A stretch of DNA of 64,000 nucleotides from Escherichia phage MX01: the sequence record NC_031934.1. The stretch is one strand, 5' to 3'. Both the position numbers and the translations under genes were made by a program. Each line of letters opens with the position of its first letter. Positions within the stretch are counted from its first letter, which is position 1. The notes below the pieces were generated by a model that was not told where the DNA came from, searched no databases, and saw only the letters and a program-made list of their open reading frames with translations. Positions 1 to 61,514 of this stretch are shown here, one piece after another.

Positions 1-380
1 AGGTGGCGTTGAGCTTCAGCAACACCGGCACGGTCGAATTCGTCGATAACAATTACCTTACGCTTACCTTCGATAGATTTAGAAGATGCAAAACGAGTAA
101 GTTCATTACGAACGAAATCAATACGGCAGTCAGAACCGTTAACAAACAGCATGTCTGAATTTGTATCAGCACACAATGCTTTAGCTACGGTAGTTTTGCC
201 TGTGCCTGGTGAAGCAGAGACTAGGATAATGTTAGGGATTAGACCCTTATTAACAATGGCTTGGAGGGTTTCTTTATCATGTGCAGGCAGAATACACTCA
301 GATAAAGTACCTGGACGATATTTCTGTTCCCACATGAAGTCATTTTCATTAATAGTTAAACCATTTACCACTTTACTCAT
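1..380 (-). CDS. 44: clamp loader large subunit gp44 (partial; 3' end outside window)
   Basis: Minus-strand translation from ATG at 380 gives MSKVVNGL...ILVSASPGTGKTTVAKAL... with Walker A and VIVIDEFDR Walker B; RBS GAGGA upstream; T4 synteny next to gene 45. Confidence 0.85.
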   Translation of the reverse strand, partial: MSKVVNGLTINENDFMWEQKYRPGTLSECILPAHDKETLQAIVNKGLIPNIILVSASPGTGKTTVAKALCADTNSDMLFVNGSDCRIDFVRNELTRFASSKSIEGKRKVIVIDEFDRAGVAEAQRH

Positions 381-939
381 TATTATTTTCCTCATTAAAA
401 TGTTTAACAATTTTATTCAATTCGTTTGCAGAATAATTATATCCATAATTTTGTAAAAGCGTACTAAATCTACCCTTTTTAGGCATACCAAGTTCTATCC
501 AAATCTTACGGAGCTCTTCATAATTCTGCCATATTTCAGAGCGTTGCCATTTAGAGCAATTAAGCTTATGGCTTTCGGAAAATGTTCTTGATTTTCCGGT
601 CCTGGTGATAGACATCTTACGTTTAGATTCAGCACTGTGGAAATCTACACCACCTGGACCACCGGGAGCTTTATTAACACAACGTGAACCATACTTGGCA
701 ATACCTTCTTTAACAAGGGCCTCTTCAATAAGTTTGGCTTCTTTAAATGTATCCGTTTTGTGGACAACCTCAATACTAAACTCCCAAACACCAGGAGTTA
801 TAGCATTTTCTCGCTTGCATTTCTTAACAAATTTACCAGTACCATAATATTCTTCAGGAGTAACACGGTGCCTACCGAAATAATGGTAGACATCCTTAGT
901 TTTGGTATTTGTTATTGTATTATGATAGCAAATGTACAT
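373..939 (-). CDS. putative GIY-YIG-family homing endonuclease (seg-like), NUMOD3-like DNA-binding motif
   Basis: 188 aa; VYHYFGRH...YYGTG resembles GIY...YIG core; ESKRKMSITRTGKSR NUMOD3-like; paralogous to ORF 60888..61514; inserted between genes 45 and 44; start overlaps gp45 stop (TAATG). Confidence 0.4.
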   Translation of the reverse strand: MYICYHNTITNTKTKDVYHYFGRHRVTPEEYYGTGKFVKKCKRENAITPGVWEFSIEVVHKTDTFKEAKLIEEALVKEGIAKYGSRCVNKAPGGPGGVDFHSAESKRKMSITRTGKSRTFSESHKLNCSKWQRSEIWQNYEELRKIWIELGMPKKGRFSTLLQNYGYNYSANELNKIVKHFNEENNNE

Positions 940-1637
940 TAGAACGAGTGGCTTGAGCCTGCTTCCATAGCTAGTACGTAAGAAGCTTGTGAACCTTCAA
1001 ACTTAGCTGCGAAACGAGCATCTTGACCTTCACCGCGTGCCCATAACAATACATGGTAATCAGCCGGCATCATTTTCATATTAGTTTTGTTAATAATGAA
1101 TTTGAATTCAGGGCCATCATGGTCTGCAACCACTAAGGAATACAACGGTCGAGTCAATTCTTTATCGTCAACTTGTTTATAACCGTTGATAACGATTTTA
1201 CCATTGTCTGTAGTGATTGCAAATGTATCAATACTCAATCCAGAGGATACACGCATCAGTTGCTGGTAGTCTTCAGCTTTAAGGTCAAAAATAACTTCAG
1301 CGACCGGGAATGGAATCTTTTTGCTTGGGAATGCAATTGTGCTTGGGTCGGCAATAGGCCACTTAATAGTTGAACGTTGGTCTTTAATAATTAAAGTGGT
1401 TTGGTCTTCACTTACCGAAACTTCAGCACTTTCAGATACCAAAGACAGAATACTTAAGAAACCGTTCAGGTCATAGATTGCGGCTTCGATATCAAAGGTA
1501 TCGGATACGGTAGCTTCACCATAACTTGCACCTGTTACAGAACGAGTTAGAATAGTGTTACCAGGTTTAAGCATGATACCTGGATTAATACCGGAGAAGT
1601 TTTTCAGAATGTTCAGAGTTTCTTTAGAGAATTTCAT
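939..1637 (-). CDS. 45: sliding clamp gp45
   Basis: 232 aa, collinear similarity to T4 gp45 (…IYDLNGFL…KFEG…); RBS AAGGA. Confidence 0.9.
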   Translation of the reverse strand: MKFSKETLNILKNFSGINPGIMLKPGNTILTRSVTGASYGEATVSDTFDIEAAIYDLNGFLSILSLVSESAEVSVSEDQTTLIIKDQRSTIKWPIADPSTIAFPSKKIPFPVAEVIFDLKAEDYQQLMRVSSGLSIDTFAITTDNGKIVINGYKQVDDKELTRPLYSLVVADHDGPEFKFIINKTNMKMMPADYHVLLWARGEGQDARFAAKFEGSQASYVLAMEAGSSHSF

Positions 1638-2138: not shown

Positions 2139-2333
2139 TTAATCGAAGTATTCATAAACGAACCAGGCAGGGTTCCTGTTCGACATGATTCTATCATACT
2201 CTGACTTAAAAGCATTTCGGAGATAATCTTCAGTAACAAGATGTTCGTCACCAGAGAAGTTGTTGACTAAAACATACCGCTTTAGTTCAGGAACGGCCAA
2301 CAAATGCTGGCCTGTTATAAAATTGGAAGCCAT
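2139..2333 (-). CDS. hypothetical small protein (T4 45.2 position)
   Basis: 64-aa ORF, position between rpbA-like ORF and gene 46. Confidence 0.4.
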   Translation of the reverse strand: MASNFITGQHLLAVPELKRYVLVNNFSGDEHLVTEDYLRNAFKSEYDRIMSNRNPAWFVYEYFD

Positions 2334-2376
2334 ATAAATATCTTTATCGGTCGCTGTATCAAATAAGGATTTGATA

Positions 2377-3093
2377 ATGAATTATAAATCAATATACGAA
2401 AAGCTTATTCAACGAGCAGTTAATAGAAATTTAACTACCTATAAAGAACGTCATCACATTATACCACAATGCATGGGTGGAACGGACGACGCTTTAAACT
2501 TGGTAGACTTAACACCTGAAGAACATTACTTGGCTCATCAGTTGTTAGTTAAAATCCATCCAGATAATGCATCGTTAGTCTATGCGGCAAGAATGATGAC
2601 AGTTAGCTCACCAAAAGCTGATAGGTCTAAAAATAAATTATTTGGATGGCTTCGTCGTAAGAATTCAGAAGCCCAAAAGGATAAAGAATTCTCGGAAGAA
2701 ACCAGAAAGAAAATGTCAATTTCCGCTTTAAAAAAGCCTAGAGTTACCTGTCCACACTGCGGTAAAACTGGATTGGTAGGCAATATGAACAGATGGCATT
2801 TCGATAACTGCCCTAAAGGCCCTAATAAAGTAGACCGCTCTATATCTGAAGAGCAAAAATTAAAAATAAAGAAAGGCCTAGAAAACATGGTCCATAAAAT
2901 TGTGGAATGTGAATTCTGTGGCCTTTCAGGAAAATCCTGTGTTATTGCCTCTCATAAAGTTTTTTGTAAGAAAAATCCTAACGGGCGCAAAAAAACAGAA
3001 AAGAAGGTAGAATGCCCTCATTGTGGTAAACAAGGGAATTCCGGTAATATGAATCGTTGGCATTTCGATAACTGTAAAATGAAGCCTCAATAA
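2377..3093 (+). CDS. HNH homing endonuclease (mob-like) with NUMOD3 motif and two Cys4 zinc-ribbon repeats
   Basis: ERHHIIPQCMGGTDDALNLVDLTPEEHYLAH HNH motif; FSEETRKKMS NUMOD3; duplicated CPHCGK...NMNRWHFDNC; RBS AAGGA 6 nt upstream of ATG 2377; opposite strand to all neighbours. Confidence 0.8.
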   Translation: MNYKSIYEKLIQRAVNRNLTTYKERHHIIPQCMGGTDDALNLVDLTPEEHYLAHQLLVKIHPDNASLVYAARMMTVSSPKADRSKNKLFGWLRRKNSEAQKDKEFSEETRKKMSISALKKPRVTCPHCGKTGLVGNMNRWHFDNCPKGPNKVDRSISEEQKLKIKKGLENMVHKIVECEFCGLSGKSCVIASHKVFCKKNPNGRKKTEKKVECPHCGKQGNSGNMNRWHFDNCKMKPQ

Positions 3094-3098
3094 GAGGC

Positions 3099-4781
3099 TT
3101 ATTCCATAATTGTAAATCGACCAACCTTTTTCATTTGTAAATGCTGACCATATGCTTGAGGGTCATGGTCCCTGTGGCTGATTATAAAAACATTACTGTC
3201 TTCAAGACTATTAAGAATACTTGCAATCGACTTAACAGCCTCAGCGTCAACTGCTCCATCAAAAACTTCATCCAACACTAATGTACTAATGTGGACTCCA
3301 CTGACTTTTTCAGCAATATCACGCCAGGTAAAAAGTAGTGCGATATCAATACGTGCTTTCTCACCCTGTGAAAATGAAGCATAACTAAAGTCTTCACGTC
3401 CACGTGATTTAATCGTCTCATTGAACTCTTCGTCTAGTGTAAAGACGTAGTCGGCTTCCATAATCTTCAAATAAGAATTTATCTGCTTATTAAAGATAGG
3501 AATGTATTTCTTAATAATGGAACCTTTAATACCGGTATCCTTCAACATTTCTGTCAGAATTCCACGATGGTATTTTTCCATTACCAGGGACGATTTGGTA
3601 GAGACGATTTTATCAAGCTCTGCTTGAAGCGTGGCAATCTCTTCGGCATTACTTACGAACTCAGCAGCGGCTTGGTCTATTAATACTTTAACTTTTTTAG
3701 CTTTCTCTACGGCAGTAATGGCTTGTTGCTTATGAGTAGCTATCTGAGATTTAATAGCCAGCGCTTTATTACGTTGTTCGGTTACTTGGTCCTTAATGAG
3801 CTTGAGTTCTTGGTACTGCTCATTAATCTTATCCAAAGATTTTTGAAGTTCAAAGTTCTTGTCCTTAATTTTAGTAAGGATATTTCCATGCTCTTCTAAT
3901 CCTTGCATACACGTAGGACAACTACCACCGGTTTCGTATAATTTCACGACCTTAGTAAAGGTTGCCATATCATTCTTGATTGCAAACCCTTTATTACTCA
4001 GGTCACTCATAGAGTCGCTAGGGTCATCATCGACAATGACATTGAGTAATTCATCAGTTAGTTTTTCTATATTGCCTTTCGCAGTCCTGGCTTCTTTAAC
4101 GAGCTCGTCATACATTACTTGTAGTCGTGCTGCGTTCTCGCCGGATAATTTACGTTGACGTTCTTCGTTGTCATTATAAATTTTAATCTGTTGGGTAATA
4201 GAATCCTGTTTAACGTCGATTACTTGGATTTGGCTATTAGTCTCACGAATCAAAGATTTGTTCAACTTATCCATATCCGCTAATACAGAAACCTCTAAGA
4301 GGTCTTCGACAAGTTTTCTTCTTGCAGGAGTGGATAGGCCCATAAAAGGGGTATATCCAGCTGTCCCGAGTACGACAATCTGTTTGAAGCTTGTGTAGGA
4401 CATTCCGATAAGCTGTTCAAATTCCGCTTGGAAGTCTTTACTGCTGGCAGATTCATCAAGACGTTCACCGTCACAAGAGATTTCAAAAACGTTGGGTTTT
4501 TGCCCGCGTTTGATGTAGTATTCTTTGCCATCATATTCCATCCACAGTTCGACCAAAAGGTCTTTCTTATTACTTGAGTTAATCAACTGCCCTTTCTTAA
4601 CATCGCGAAAAGGCTTACCAAACAGAGCAAATGTTACGGCTTCAAGGAATGTTGATTTCCCTGCACCATTTTTACCAGTGACTAAGGTCTTTTGGACCTT
4701 ATCAAGTTGGATTGTAATAGGTTGCTGGCCTACCGACATAATATTTTTATACGTTACTTTCTTTAACTTAAAAGTCTTCAT
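3099..4781 (-). CDS. 46: recombination endonuclease subunit gp46 (SbcC/Rad50-like ATPase)
   Basis: Start at MKTFKLKK; Walker A GKNGAGKST, signature SQGEKARIDIALLF, Walker B LVLDEVFDG; length ~560 aa. Confidence 0.9.
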   Translation of the reverse strand: MKTFKLKKVTYKNIMSVGQQPITIQLDKVQKTLVTGKNGAGKSTFLEAVTFALFGKPFRDVKKGQLINSSNKKDLLVELWMEYDGKEYYIKRGQKPNVFEISCDGERLDESASSKDFQAEFEQLIGMSYTSFKQIVVLGTAGYTPFMGLSTPARRKLVEDLLEVSVLADMDKLNKSLIRETNSQIQVIDVKQDSITQQIKIYNDNEERQRKLSGENAARLQVMYDELVKEARTAKGNIEKLTDELLNVIVDDDPSDSMSDLSNKGFAIKNDMATFTKVVKLYETGGSCPTCMQGLEEHGNILTKIKDKNFELQKSLDKINEQYQELKLIKDQVTEQRNKALAIKSQIATHKQQAITAVEKAKKVKVLIDQAAAEFVSNAEEIATLQAELDKIVSTKSSLVMEKYHRGILTEMLKDTGIKGSIIKKYIPIFNKQINSYLKIMEADYVFTLDEEFNETIKSRGREDFSYASFSQGEKARIDIALLFTWRDIAEKVSGVHISTLVLDEVFDGAVDAEAVKSIASILNSLEDSNVFIISHRDHDPQAYGQHLQMKKVGRFTIME

Positions 4782-5031
4782 CGTTATAAGCATCCTTGAT
4801 GCATGATTCGGCCATATGAATTAATGTTTCTGGAGTATCATCTACCATTACATTAAAGCTAAATTCCACAGCCCAATCAGTAGCAACATAAACTTTAATA
4901 AGCTCGTTGGTATCACGAGTGCTCACAGCTTCAAACCAGAACTTAATTGTACTAGGTTGTCCATCGTCATCAATAACGATACAGTCGTGTTCTAGTTCAA
5001 GGCCTGATTTTTTAAATTCATCTAAAGTCAT
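4768..5031 (-). CDS. hypothetical protein
   Basis: 87-aa acidic ORF between genes 47 and 46, overlapping gp46 start. Confidence 0.35.
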   Translation of the reverse strand: MTLDEFKKSGLELEHDCIVIDDDGQPSTIKFWFEAVSTRDTNELIKVYVATDWAVEFSFNVMVDDTPETLIHMAESCIKDAYNDEDF

Positions 5032-6050
5032 CGTGTAACCTCATTATAAAGTTGTGCAGCCATAGTCTTAAGGGCTTTAACATCGTCTTCAGTGTGGCCA
5101 TCAGGAAGGGCATCGATATAATCATACATCATATCCAAGAGGGACTTAACTTCATCTTCCTCTTCAGAATCATCGATATCAACACTGTTATCTACCTTAG
5201 ACACGATACGTAAAGAGTGGACAACCTTTTCAAGCTCTGATTCGAACTTAGTAAGACCGTCATCAATTTTATCGACTATAACACGAACTGCGATATTTGT
5301 AAAATCTTTGTAATCGATAGTCGCGTTAGGATAATGAATCTTACGGTGCCAACAGGTTTCATTGATGATGAAATCCATCTTATGAGTTTCTGTATCAAAA
5401 ATCCAGAAGCCTCGAGGGTCGTTCTCATCACCGGCAGTCAAGGTCCATGGTGTACCGATATACTTAACGTTTGCTGCATCAGAAATAGTGTGGAAGTGGC
5501 CTGACCAAACCTGCTTATACTTCTTAAGGAAATCAGGTTCTAAACCATGAGATTTCATTCCTTTATAGAAATAGAAACCATTTAATTCCCAGTGACCAAT
5601 ACAAAAATCTGCTGTGGTATTTTTGATATGCTCCATGATATCAGTCGTGTTTTCTTCACACATCCATGGAATCAAATCAATTTCGGTGCCATCAAAGTTA
5701 ACCGTAGTAGGTTTCTCAATAACCTTGATATGCTCATATTTACCCAGAACTTCAGAAGCAGCGTTCGGAGTCAAGGTATTTTTGTAGTGCATATCATGGT
5801 TACCAACAATGGTATACATGGTAATGCCATTTTCTTTAAGCAAATCTGAAATATGTCTGGCAAATTCCATGCACTTATGAGTAATTGCTTTACGAACATC
5901 AAAAATATCACCATACTGAATCCAGACAGTGATACCGTTTGCTTTAGAATAATTGATGGCGTCTTTAATGCCTGCCAATTGAATATTTTGCACCCAAGGG
6001 TCATCGTTCTTAACTCCAAGGTGCCAGTCACCTGTGTTTAGTATTTTCAT
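5028..6050 (-). CDS. 47: recombination nuclease subunit gp47 (SbcD/Mre11-like phosphoesterase)
   Basis: MKILNTGDWHLG...GNHD...GHWE...GHFH calcineurin-like motifs; start set at internal ATG 6050. Confidence 0.9.
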   Translation of the reverse strand: MKILNTGDWHLGVKNDDPWVQNIQLAGIKDAINYSKANGITVWIQYGDIFDVRKAITHKCMEFARHISDLLKENGITMYTIVGNHDMHYKNTLTPNAASEVLGKYEHIKVIEKPTTVNFDGTEIDLIPWMCEENTTDIMEHIKNTTADFCIGHWELNGFYFYKGMKSHGLEPDFLKKYKQVWSGHFHTISDAANVKYIGTPWTLTAGDENDPRGFWIFDTETHKMDFIINETCWHRKIHYPNATIDYKDFTNIAVRVIVDKIDDGLTKFESELEKVVHSLRIVSKVDNSVDIDDSEEEDEVKSLLDMMYDYIDALPDGHTEDDVKALKTMAAQLYNEVTR

Positions 6051-59949: not shown

Positions 59950-60885
59950 ATGGCAAGTGAATCATATAACCCTAAGCAACTCAAGGACGCAATCCTGCGC
60001 CGCCTGGGTGCACCGATTACAAATATTGAAGTAACTACAGACCAAGTATACGATTGCATCCAGCGCGCCCTGGAGCTCTACGGTGAATATCATTATAACG
60101 GCTATAACAAAGGTTATCAGGCTTTTTATATAGGCCATGATGACGAAGAAAAATTCCGTAACGGCGTATTTGACCTTAAAGGCCGTAATATATTTGCGGT
60201 AACACAAATTTTGAGAACCAACGTAGGTTCTTTAACATCTATGGATGGCCAAGCGACTTATCCGTGGTTTACTGATTTTGTATTAGGCTTGGCCGGTATT
60301 AATGGTGGTCTTGGAACTTCTTGTAACAGCTTTGGGCCTAATGCCTTTGGTGCTGACCTTGGGTATTTTACACAATTAATGCAATATCGTTCTATGATGC
60401 AGGACCTTTTGGTTCCATTGCCTGATTATTGGTATAACGATGCTACTGAACAGTTGAAGGTAATGGGTAACTTTGTTAAAGGCGATTTTATTGTAATTGA
60501 AGTTTATACTCGCTCTTTTAATGGGGTCGATTCTATGGTAGGAAATACCGCAGGATATGGATACGCCTCTGGTGGGTGCGACGAAAATGAATGGAGCCCC
60601 GGAGCTATTTGGGATAACCCGGCTCGTCGTATTTCAGGTATGAGGGCAGGTGAAGACCTTGGTTTGCAAGATGGTTCATATAATAACCGTTGGGTCAAAG
60701 ATTATGCGACGGCATTGGTTAAAGAAGTCAATGGTAATATTTTGGCCAAACACCAAGGCATGCAACTTGCGGGTGGAACCACTGTAGATGGTATTCGATT
60801 GATTGAAGAAGCTCGTTTAGAAAAAGAACGCCTTCGCGAAGAATTAGATTTACTCGACCCACCAACACCTATTTTAATTGGATAA
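59950..60885 (+). CDS. 13: neck protein gp13
   Basis: 311 aa; [13 protein letters not shown]...[17 protein letters not shown]. Confidence 0.85.
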
Positions 60886-60887
60886 TT

Positions 60888-61514
60888 ATGTTTTATAGAT
60901 TATACGTGACTGAGTTTGAAACGTCGGACGGATTAAAAATTTATGGCGGTAAAAGACATTCGGATAAATCTAATCCAAAGCTGGATTCATACGTTGGCTC
61001 AGGAACGTATATTTCGAATGCTAAGAAAAAATATGGACGAAACTGTATAAAACAGGTATTATGGTCGAAAGATTTCGGTAATCCGGAATTATTAAAGGAA
61101 GCCGAAGAACTTTTAGTCGATATTCTTAAAGAAGATTTTGCTCAGTGTGTTAATTTGGTAAAAGGAGGACAAGGTGGTCCTTCTTATTACAATCCTAAAG
61201 ATAACCCTAATATAGGTAAAACCCGTTCTATAGAATCAAGAAAAAGAATGTCAGAGGCGGCAAAATCAAGAGAATGGACTGAAGAAGGGCTAAAGCGTAG
61301 AAAAGAATCTACCGCATTAATGTGGACGCGTGTGAAACACCCAGATTTTACCGGTAGTAAAAATCCTGCGGCCAGAGCAGTTAGAGTCGGAGAAATGGTA
61401 TTCTCGACAGGTAAAGAATGCGCCGAGTATTTTGGTATAGTCAAAAGCGCAGTTATTAATAGAATAAAGAATGATAAACCTAAATGGAAGGAGTGGAGTT
61501 ATGTCGACATTTGA
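60888..61514 (+). CDS. GIY-YIG-family homing endonuclease (seg-like) with NUMOD3 and C-terminal HTH-like motif
   Basis: KIYGGKRH...YVGSG core; [19 protein letters not shown]3; paralog of 373..939; inserted between genes 13 and 14. Confidence 0.6.

Follow-up and report, generated by a model that had tools for sequence, protein, structure and literature searches.

The window analysed here, a 64,000-nt stretch of the genome of Escherichia phage MX01 (NC_031934.1), a T4-like Dhakavirus, contains an open reading frame encoding 188 aa on the minus strand between gene 45, which encodes the sliding clamp, and gene 44, which encodes the clamp loader (Table 1). The gp44 reading frame is incomplete here, as it runs off the start of the window. 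The ATG of the intervening frame (939..937) shares one base with the gp45 TAA (941..939), and its own TAA (375..373) falls 5 nt past the gp44 ATG (380..378), so that the Shine-Dalgarno sequence and start codon of gene 44 lie within its last codons. This initiation region, AATGAGGAAAATAATAATGAGTAA, consists of the gp44 Shine-Dalgarno sequence GAGGA (393..389), which overlaps the codons ...N-E-E-N-N-N-E*, the gp44 ATG and the stop of the intervening frame, and it resembles T4 AAUGAGGAAAUUAUG, the stretch just 5' of and including the gene 44 start codon. An earlier note on this DNA had described a frame that begins at the gp45 stop and reads through the gp44 ribosome-binding site and start; both junctions are as described there, AATGAGGAAAATAATAATGAGTAA matches the letters it quoted exactly, and the strand, which it did not give, is the minus strand. 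The C-terminal tail FNEENNN is kept in Bp7, VR20 and L007 and partly in a Hadza-gut phage.

The TAATG overlap suggests that translation of the frame may be coupled to that of gp45. No Shine-Dalgarno sequence, promoter or hairpin of its own was found in the sequence or in promoter and terminator scans. The late promoter TATAAATA does not occur near the gene on its strand, and the number of sigma-70-like matches (16, compared with 10.5 +/- 3.2 in shuffled sequence) is not convincingly over background. The predicted RNA fold at the two translation starts was likewise no different from that of shuffles (z of 0.27 at TAATG and 0.51 at the other start).

Table 1. Features at the gene 45/44 junction and at the paralogous locus (positions in the window).
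Feature	Position	Strand	Basis
Predicted free-standing Seg-type GIY-YIG homing endonuclease gene, 188 aa	373..939	minus	ORF listing
Predicted N-terminal GIY-YIG nuclease domain, aa 1-98	646..939	minus	AlphaFold2, family columns, hhalign, dN/dS
Linker (aa 99-132) containing a single basic, NUMOD3-like motif, ESKRKMSITRTGKSR	544..645	minus	weak Pfam match
Predicted C-terminal helical DNA-binding module, aa ~133-187, W..Y.EL..IW....PK[KR]G.F	379..543	minus	SegA/SegF/MobD comparison
gp45 sliding clamp, upstream neighbour	939..1637	minus	ORF listing; annotated Bp7 and JS98 homologs
TAATG, overlap of gp45 stop and endonuclease start	937..941	minus	sequence
gp44 clamp loader, codons 1-126, downstream neighbour	1..380	minus	translation, Bp7/JS98 gp44 alignment
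Gene 44 translation initiation region AATGAGGAAAATAATAATGAGTAA	373..396	minus	window sequence; T4 45-44 spacer
Putative mobile cassette, ~600 nt	340..938		5 HEG+ vs 7 HEG- genome alignments
Predicted paralog, a Seg-type GIY-YIG endonuclease gene flanked by gp13 and gp14	60888..61514	plus	PHROG 314, E 9.3e-33

Judged by its sequence, the frame is a Seg-family GIY-YIG endonuclease gene with predicted nuclease activity. It is matched by PHROG 314 'homing endonuclease' (E 8.5e-16, 59 bits), and an exhaustive profile search gathered 468 relatives at E<=1e-3. Neither PF01541 (GIY-YIG) nor PF19835 (SegE_GIY-YIG) matches the frame itself, even at E<=1; as 18 of 51 aligned relatives match PF19835 and 8 match PF01541, with NUMOD3 matched by 29, the Pfam link of the frame to GIY-YIG is transitive. 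Scans of the frame against Pfam and NCBIfam gave a sub-threshold NUMOD3 match from the former and nothing from the latter. Searches of PDB sequences by phmmer, with this protein and with its paralog, gave no matches, and with the family profile the only PDB sequence matched was the I-TevI DNA-binding domain, weakly and in the NUMOD3 manner, with nothing for the catalytic domain.

The AlphaFold2 model of the 188-aa protein (mean pLDDT 89.8) has the strand-strand-helix-strand-helix topology (E2-11, E17-25, H36-47, E52-62, H65-86), with a three-stranded antiparallel sheet and flanking helices, of the GIY-YIG alpha/beta fold, and a Foldseek search with this model ranked I-TevI only ninth (E 0.67). 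Alignment of I-TevI with the family profile by hhalign (E 1.3e-5) pairs the candidate catalytic residues Y5, Y20-x-G22, E72 and N89 with Y6, Y17/G19, E75 and N90 of I-TevI, respectively. Y5, the 'GIY' tyrosine, sits on strand 1 in the context I-C-Y, and N89 in C-V-N; both belong to the residues invariant among 51 family members (Y5, G22, Y31, G33, G35, E72, N89), all of which are present, while Y20 of the 'YIG' motif (Y20-F21-G22) is kept in at least 90% of family sequences. Residues 25-32 of I-TevI, which hold R27, the conserved Arg at the start of helix 1, fall in a gap of this alignment; candidates for its equivalent are the basic residues R23, R25 and K39, conserved among orthologs, none of which could be assigned. 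The 14-residue GIY...YIG spacing is unusual and is also found in P0006 and P0007, two distant relatives whose sequences were read, where the motif 'YHT.I.N...YHY.G[KR]H' recurs as well.

C-terminal to the predicted nuclease domain lie a NUMOD3-like linker (weak Pfam match over aa 100-116, E 0.067), the least confident part of the model (pLDDT 56-82), and then a separate predicted DNA-binding module, a three-helix HTH unit common to T4 SegA, T4 SegF and the T4 HNH endonuclease MobD. This module sets the frame apart from the gene at 60888..61514, with which it had been paired in the earlier note on the strength of collinear motifs. The motifs are real, and five of them align (YFGRH/YGGKRH, YYGTG/YVGSG, KEAxxxE, CVNxxxGGxGG and ESxxKMS...KSR). 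Paralogy beats chance in BLASTP (E 5e-5, 22% identity) and in hhalign of the ortholog profile against 60888..61514 (91% probability, E 1e-6), yet significant homology is confined to residues ~9-103, the nuclease domain, while the C-terminal halves are DNA-binding modules of different types. That of 60888..61514 is of the I-TevI type (Pfam I-TevI_DNA-bd, E 3.3e-5), and this gene also matches NUMOD3 and TIGR01453 (E 1e-8) and scores 115 bits against PHROG 314.

Among known systems, T4 SegF gives the strongest profile alignment (E 2e-9, hhalign probability 96%, 173 columns, about 25% identity), which extends from the nuclease domain through the linker and over the W..EL..W..GKP module at the C-terminus. 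Both genes are free-standing and overlap the end of the upstream gene, by 11 nt in the case of segF and gene 56, but they differ in site (56/soc vs 45/44), presumably in target, and in length, at 224 aa for SegF and 188 aa for the window protein, which carries just one NUMOD3-like motif. T4 SegA, whose activity has been shown experimentally (PMC2988022, Table 1) where that of the window protein is predicted, has the same domain order (94% probability, E 1e-7, 157 columns, 29% identity), but lies between uvsX and beta-gt and carries more NUMOD3 repeats in its linker. I-TevI, the GIY-YIG archetype, is encoded in the td intron; in contrast, the window gene is not intron-encoded, and its product has 14 residues between the two Tyr motifs, lacks a zinc finger and has a C-terminal module of another type. 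The C-terminal region of T4 MobD aligns with residues 73-188 of the window protein (32% identity, E 1e-11) although its catalytic domain is of the HNH type and unrelated to GIY-YIG, so that one DNA-binding module is used by endonucleases of two catalytic families. A parallel in layout is T4 mobE, between nrdA and nrdB, which likewise fits without a seam into an operon of essential genes and whose start overlaps the upstream stop and whose end overlaps the downstream start in the T4 feature table. It is an HNH-family gene at another locus, and its product is reported to nick DNA instead of breaking both strands (PMC2988022).

The endonuclease frame is under purifying selection. Apart from that of vB_EcoM_005, all eight copies that were read are full length and free of stops, at 55-99% identity, and dN/dS, at 0.06-0.34 overall, is far under 1 in both domains. 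Between the window and Bp7 it is 0.18 overall and 0.11 in the nuclease domain, and between VR20 and L007 0.064 and 0.07, respectively; the nuclease-domain values rest on these two pairs, in which dS is unsaturated. The suggestion in the earlier note that a core more degenerate than that of the paralog marks a decaying or regulatory-only copy is not supported, given the intact copies, the low dN/dS, the full set of invariant residues and the recurrence of the unusual spacing in P0006 and P0007.

Alignment of five Dhakavirus genomes that carry the endonuclease gene (HEG+) with seven that lack it (HEG-) delimits a cassette of ~600 nt that fits seamlessly inside the 45-44-62-regA-43 replication operon. 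It replaces ~83 nt of the HEG- genomes, namely a 61-nt hairpin spacer and codons 1-8 of gene 44, and brings its own gene 44 ribosome-binding site and first 13-14 codons, with MSKVVNGLTINEND replacing MLTVNNNE. In carriers, the only ribosome-binding site and start codon of gene 44 come from within the endonuclease frame. Candidate immunity polymorphisms were sought from gene 45.2 through gene 62 in the same genomes, and no fixed differences were found outside the cassette. Only a spacer of 51-61 nt separates gene 45 from gene 44 in T4, in JS98 and in most Dhakaviruses; this adjacency, which the earlier note had proposed to look for, is as predicted for a mobile insertion.

The endonuclease orthologs (55-99% identity) come from three phage lineages and in every case occupy the 45/44 junction. 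The carriers are the Dhakaviruses SHP1, LQ5, Bp7 and PSD2002, the Gaprivervirus VR20 together with a related contig from a metagenome, and the 169-kb Hadza-gut phage. The distribution of the gene is sporadic. Out of 47 records matching a 2.4-kb query at >=90% identity, only seven covered at least 80% of it, and it is in these seven that the gene is present. A word-indexed protein search returned only four close homologs and a scan of IMG/VR only VR20 itself, which indicates that the ortholog group is rare. The claim that a Seg-like endonuclease gene occupies the junction between the clamp and clamp-loader genes is supported by the profiles, the predicted fold, the catalytic residues, the modular architecture and this distribution.

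The cassette and its flanks have different closest relatives. The cassette is 98.5% identical to the copies of SHP1 and LQ5, and the adjacent gp45 DNA 90.6% identical, which argues that the endonuclease gene moved horizontally; relative to SHP1, 9 of 599 nt differ in the cassette and 33 of 352 in the adjoining 3' half of gp45 (Fisher p 2.5e-8), and dS is 0.065 for the endonuclease gene vs 0.40 for gp45. The flanks of the window copy are closest to those of ABTNLsp5, a phage without the endonuclease gene (99.1% and 96.0% identity). Ordinary mosaic recombination instead of endonuclease-driven conversion could also have produced this discordance. Across lineages, divergence of the endonuclease broadly follows that of gp45 and gp44, so that it may have been passed on vertically for much of its past. 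In vB_EcoM_005, a deletion of ~111 nt takes out the C-terminal DNA-binding module and the N-terminal 155 aa of the endonuclease are apparently fused in frame to gp44; decay of the element thus does happen in some lineages.

Based on this evidence, 373..939 is most likely a functional, free-standing Seg (GIY-YIG) homing endonuclease gene carried on a ~600-nt cassette, its activity being predicted. Seg-type endonuclease genes are an ordinary kind of selfish element in T4-like phages. For Seg and Mob genes intronless homing is established (PMC2988022). The endonuclease gene would share the transcript of gene 45, and ribosomes that terminate and reinitiate at TAATG would translate it at a low level. 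When a co-infecting phage has an empty 45/44 junction, its DNA would be cut by the endonuclease, probably inside or close to the ~83-nt segment (the spacer and the 5' end of gene 44) whose place the cassette takes, a placement suggested by this being the sole sequence that consistently differs between carriers and non-carriers. As the cleavage sites of free-standing endonucleases can lie up to hundreds of bp from the gene (PMC2988022), a target within the replaced 83 nt is the simplest guess only. T4-type recombination would then repair the break off the carrier genome, and the recipient would thereby acquire both the endonuclease gene and the recoded gene 44 start. The essential gene 44 would stay expressed, since the last codons of the cassette hold a copy of its ribosome-binding region.

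Alternatively, the frame could be a domesticated or regulatory copy, in the sense of the regulatory-only idea of the earlier note, whose product, or whose translation alone, is now of use to the phage. The protein might bind DNA without cutting it, or the frame might couple translation and so set the gp45:gp44 stoichiometry. Such a role would fit a frame that lacks its own promoter and Shine-Dalgarno sequence and overlaps both neighbours, and whose ribosomes would halt 5 nt past the gp44 AUG. It would also fit the presence, within the last codons, of a T4-like gene 44 initiation region that is kept in the orthologs (partly in the Hadza-gut phage), RegA sites in T4 being located at the start codon or just 5' of it. 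The PHROG 314 score below that of the paralog (59 vs 115 bits), the lack of an identified equivalent of I-TevI Arg27 in the hhalign alignment and the in-frame fusion to gp44 in vB_EcoM_005 point in the same direction. However, most close relatives lack the gene and still have genes 45 and 44 adjacent, which makes it dispensable for operon function, and constraint is strongest on the nuclease domain (0.07-0.11), where the residues aligned with the I-TevI active site are kept, neither of which is needed for a coupling frame. The phylogeny of the cassette is, moreover, discordant with that of its flanks, as for a mobile element, and we regard a purely regulatory copy as unlikely.

Another possibility is that an active nuclease serves mainly in competition or exclusion, by cutting co-infecting relatives or host or defence-related DNA, with the spread of the gene as a by-product. 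The long tie to one locus in three lineages suggests retention by benefit, but its sporadic presence among very close relatives is more typical of a selfish element than of a gene that benefits the phage. Cutting of a competitor would be mechanistically the same event as homing, and the present data do not separate the two; as the main function, competition appears quite improbable. An inactive remnant of a homing endonuclease gene heading for loss, to which the distance of the frame from its family profile (a PHROG 314 score of 59 bits, no direct Pfam match) and the deletion in vB_EcoM_005 might point, is already largely refuted by the selection analysis and, given the full-length copies, the complete set of invariant residues and the confident predicted fold, is very improbable.

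It is doubtful that the cassette is more than a passenger, through endonuclease-linked expression of gp44, a recoded start that serves as immunity determinant, and addiction-like stabilisation. If this were the case, gp44 synthesis would be set or gated by translation of the endonuclease through the RegA-operator-like region, which ends 5 nt past the gp44 AUG, and the recoded gene 44 start would double as immunity determinant and as counterpart to the target of the enzyme. The element could then hardly be lost precisely, and the endonuclease-gp44 fusion of vB_EcoM_005 would represent one outcome of attempted loss.

Public records list the gene as 'hypothetical protein' in SHP1, Bp7, PSD2002 and VR20 while the LQ5 record has no annotation, and in a limited search of the literature no description of an endonuclease between genes 45 and 44 came up. 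The general understanding of such elements is unchanged by these findings. What is gained is an annotation: the gene can be named as that of a predicted Seg-type GIY-YIG homing endonuclease, its cassette is delimited, and the ~83-nt HEG- segment offers a short candidate target. This would add a homing site within the core replication operon (clamp/clamp loader), where T4's endonuclease list has none, and the Dhakaviruses offer a clean natural case of discordance between cassette and flanks. The comparison further documents the sharing of one module between GIY-YIG (SegA, SegF and the window protein) and HNH (MobD) endonucleases.

The source phage is T4-like and belongs to the genus Dhakavirus (JS98 group), the first 2.4 kb of the window being about 96% identical to Salmonella phage SHP1 and Escherichia phage LQ5 and 90-97% identical to Bp7, IME08 and JS98. 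Gene order on the minus strand is 46, 45.2, rpbA, 45, the endonuclease ORF and 44, the last extending past the window start and hence incomplete. Judging by sequence relationships and a structural model, the ORF product is a Seg-like endonuclease, as an earlier note had proposed, and is predicted to be capable of cleavage. Both the ORF and its paralog (60888..61514) matched PHROG 314 ('homing endonuclease'). A profile of the ORF and four close homologs, searched against 1.84 billion representative proteins, retrieved 468 relatives at E<=1e-3, and 49 of these were aligned with the ORF and the paralog. Pfam matches within these 51 sequences were to SegE_GIY-YIG (18/51), GIY-YIG (8/51) and NUMOD3 (29/51); Y5, G22, Y31, G33, G35, E72 and N89 (ORF numbering) are invariant, and Y20 is conserved in at least 90% of sequences. 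T4 SegF (96% probability, E 2e-9, 173 columns) and SegA (94%, E 1e-7, 157 columns) match the ortholog profile over nearly their full length. The GIY-YIG archetype I-TevI matches the family profile at E 1.3e-5, which pairs Y5 with Y6, Y20-x-G22 with Y17-x-G19, E72 with E75 and N89 with N90, while the position of Arg27 of I-TevI falls in an alignment gap. The AlphaFold2 model is confident (mean pLDDT 89.8; at least 94 across residues 1-90) and follows the GIY-YIG topology, strand-strand-helix-strand-helix. When the model was compared with PDB structures by Foldseek, I-TevI ranked ninth (E 0.67). No direct match to the ORF was found in Pfam, NCBIfam or PDB sequences. Among the traits compared, a direct hit to the curated Pfam model is the only one that sets it apart from Seg-type endonucleases; in sequence and fold, in domain architecture, and in where it lies, how it is distributed and how it has moved, it conforms to them.

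Over residues 73-188 the protein shares 32% identity (E 1e-11) with the C-terminal region of the T4 HNH endonuclease MobD, and the SegA and SegF alignments extend through this MobD-like region. It is therefore a DNA-binding module common to two catalytic families. The motif series previously noticed in the ORF and the paralog is present and statistically supported, and paralogy holds in pairwise comparison (BLASTP E 5e-5; profile-versus-sequence E 1e-6), but only for residues ~9-103. The C-terminal part of the paralog is an I-TevI-type DNA-binding domain. The two proteins have a nuclease domain in common and different target-reading domains.

The ORF does begin at the gp45 stop and read through the ribosome-binding site and start of gp44, as had been described: the junction reads TAATG, and GAGGA and the gp44 ATG lie within the ORF end. 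A similarly seamless layout is seen in the paralog between gp13 and gp14, which ends 11-14 nt past the likely gp14 ATG, and in T4 mobE between nrdA and nrdB. The gp14 start at 61471 in the ORF list is probably too early.

Features at the 45/44 junction, the paralog locus and the gene 46 region
Feature	Position	Strand	Remark
Endonuclease ORF	373..939	-	188 aa, ORF listing
Endonuclease ATG	939..937	-	overlaps gp45 TAA (941..939); reads TAATG
Endonuclease TAA	375..373	-	5 nt past gp44 ATG (380..378)
gp44 Shine-Dalgarno GAGGA	393..389	-	inside codons of endonuclease tail ...FNEENNNE*
Paralog start (ATG)	60888	+	2 nt after gp13 stop (60883-60885)
gp14 Shine-Dalgarno AAGGAG and likely ATG	ATG 61501	+	inside last codons of paralog (61490..61514)
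Late-promoter consensus TATAAATA	2333..2340	+	immediately upstream of HNH gene
Mob-type HNH gene	2371..3093	+	240 aa, between 45.2 and 46
gp46	3099..4793	-	564 aa, single intact ORF

In T4-like phages, the Seg (GIY-YIG) and Mob (HNH) endonucleases are well described as free-standing, intergenic genes that are unequally distributed even among close relatives, can cut at a distance from their own location and show 'intronless homing' (PMC2988022; PMC2993671). The 15 endonucleases listed for T4 include none at a 45/44 site (PMC2988022), no description of one at this junction was found in the literature searched, and all annotated public records examined label the product 'hypothetical protein'. 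The endonuclease adds a new member, unannotated until now, to a familiar type of selfish element.

Genes 45 and 44 are adjacent in most relatives, a point whose checking the earlier note had recommended; they directly adjoin in T4, JS98 and six other Dhakaviruses. The T4 spacer is 51 nt long and contains the hairpin GGGCTTCGGCCC followed by AAUGAGGAAAUUAUG, whereas that of JS98 and the six others is 61 nt with a hairpin unlike that of T4. At least 80% of the 2.4-kb query was covered in 7 of the 47 records matching at >=90% identity. All orthologs found lie at the 45/44 junction, in Dhakavirus, Gaprivervirus VR20 and a 169-kb Hadza-gut phage. In an alignment of 5 carriers and 7 non-carriers, the two groups run colinear as far as the gp45 TAA and do so again from TTCATGTGG (gp44 codon ~14), and ~600 nt in carriers (window 340..938) stand in for ~83 nt in non-carriers. 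With the cassette come a ribosome-binding site and an N-terminus for gene 44 (MSKVVNGLTINEND versus MLTVNNNE). No consistent carrier/non-carrier differences were found elsewhere from gene 45.2 to gene 62. In the Bp7 record (NC_019500.1), gp44 is begun at an upstream ATG (in AATGAGG) within the endonuclease gene (L001:1873-1895), which makes it 330 aa long. The likely true start, used in SHP1 and PSD2002, is an ATG five codons further on that has a properly spaced GAGGA.

In the window, Bp7 and the Hadza-gut phage, the gp45 stop and the start of the endonuclease gene meet directly. VR20 and the metagenomic contig L007 keep a T4-type hairpin upstream, and their endonuclease has its own GGAG Shine-Dalgarno. 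This post-gene-45 hairpin is conserved from T4 (L009:2354-2404) to VR20 and L007 (GGGGCTTCGGCCCC; in VR20 at L003 about 2964-2995), Dhakaviruses of the JS98 type carry another (GGGAGGAATTTCCTCCC; in JS98 at L002:1863-1923), and none accompanies the window/Bp7-type cassette. Insertion therefore took away from between 45 and 44 what may be a terminator or an element for RNA stability.

Between the window and SHP1 the cassette differs at 9 of 599 nt (98.5% identity), whereas the adjoining gp45 differs at 33 of 352 nt (90.6%; Fisher p 2.5e-8), with dS of 0.065 for the endonuclease gene and 0.40 for gp45. The window flanks are nearest to the non-carrier ABTNLsp5 (gene 44 99.1%, gp45 96.0%), and against Bp7-type phages the endonuclease allele (dS 0.85) is more diverged than its flanks (dS 0.15-0.38). 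Given these mismatches in divergence, cassette and flanks have separate histories, which fits a homing element. Alternatively, ordinary mosaic recombination could have produced the same discordance.

The suggestion that a degenerate core marks a decaying or merely regulatory copy is not supported: all eight copies read (window, SHP1, LQ5, Bp7, PSD2002, VR20, L007 and the Hadza-gut phage; protein identity 55-99%) are uninterrupted and dN/dS is well under 1. By the Nei-Gojobori method, whole-gene values are 0.18 for window versus Bp7 (dS 0.85) and 0.064 for VR20 versus L007 (dS 0.81), and nuclease-domain values 0.11 and 0.07, respectively. The seemingly degenerate features, I-C-Y replacing G-I-Y and a 14-residue spacing, recur in the distant relatives P0006 and P0007, whose sequences show the same pattern (Y-H-T-x-I...Y-H-Y-x-G-[KR]). 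Decay does occur in another phage, vB_EcoM_005, where a deletion of ~111 nt has cost the endonuclease its C-terminal module and gene 44 its first 5 codons, fusing the two frames. The resulting ORF (L004:1501-2937, NC_055783.1), annotated as a 478-aa 'clamp loader', joins the nuclease domain of a Bp7-type endonuclease, its first ~155 aa, to gp44 starting at residue 6. The in-frame deletion also removes the ribosome-binding site and start codon of gene 44. Either a viable phage carries a true fusion of nuclease and clamp loader here, or the assembly is wrong.

Neither a late promoter nor a convincing sigma-70-like one was found for the ORF, nor any RNA structure out of the ordinary; most simply, it would share the transcript of gene 45 and be translated through coupling at the TAATG overlap. 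RegA sites overlap or sit immediately 5' of start codons, and binding studies have employed gene 44 operator RNA (PMC3014915). The T4 gene 44 start and the sequence just upstream (AAUGAGGAAAUUAUG) closely resemble the region encoded by the last codons of the endonuclease.

A third homing-endonuclease-like gene, of Mob type, lies nearby on the opposite strand, and its product matches PHROG 655 (E 5e-69) and carries repeated zinc-ribbon motifs. Bp7 and FB have this gene, and JS98, SHP1, PSD2002 and the majority of other Dhakaviruses do not; in KIT01 and IME281 the segment aligned to that part of the query is annotated 'homing endonuclease'. Beside this gene, Bp7 gene 46 is annotated in two pieces (L001:4789-4971 and 5051-5413). 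The split could stem from a frameshift or from faulty annotation, or it could be damage linked to the endonuclease.
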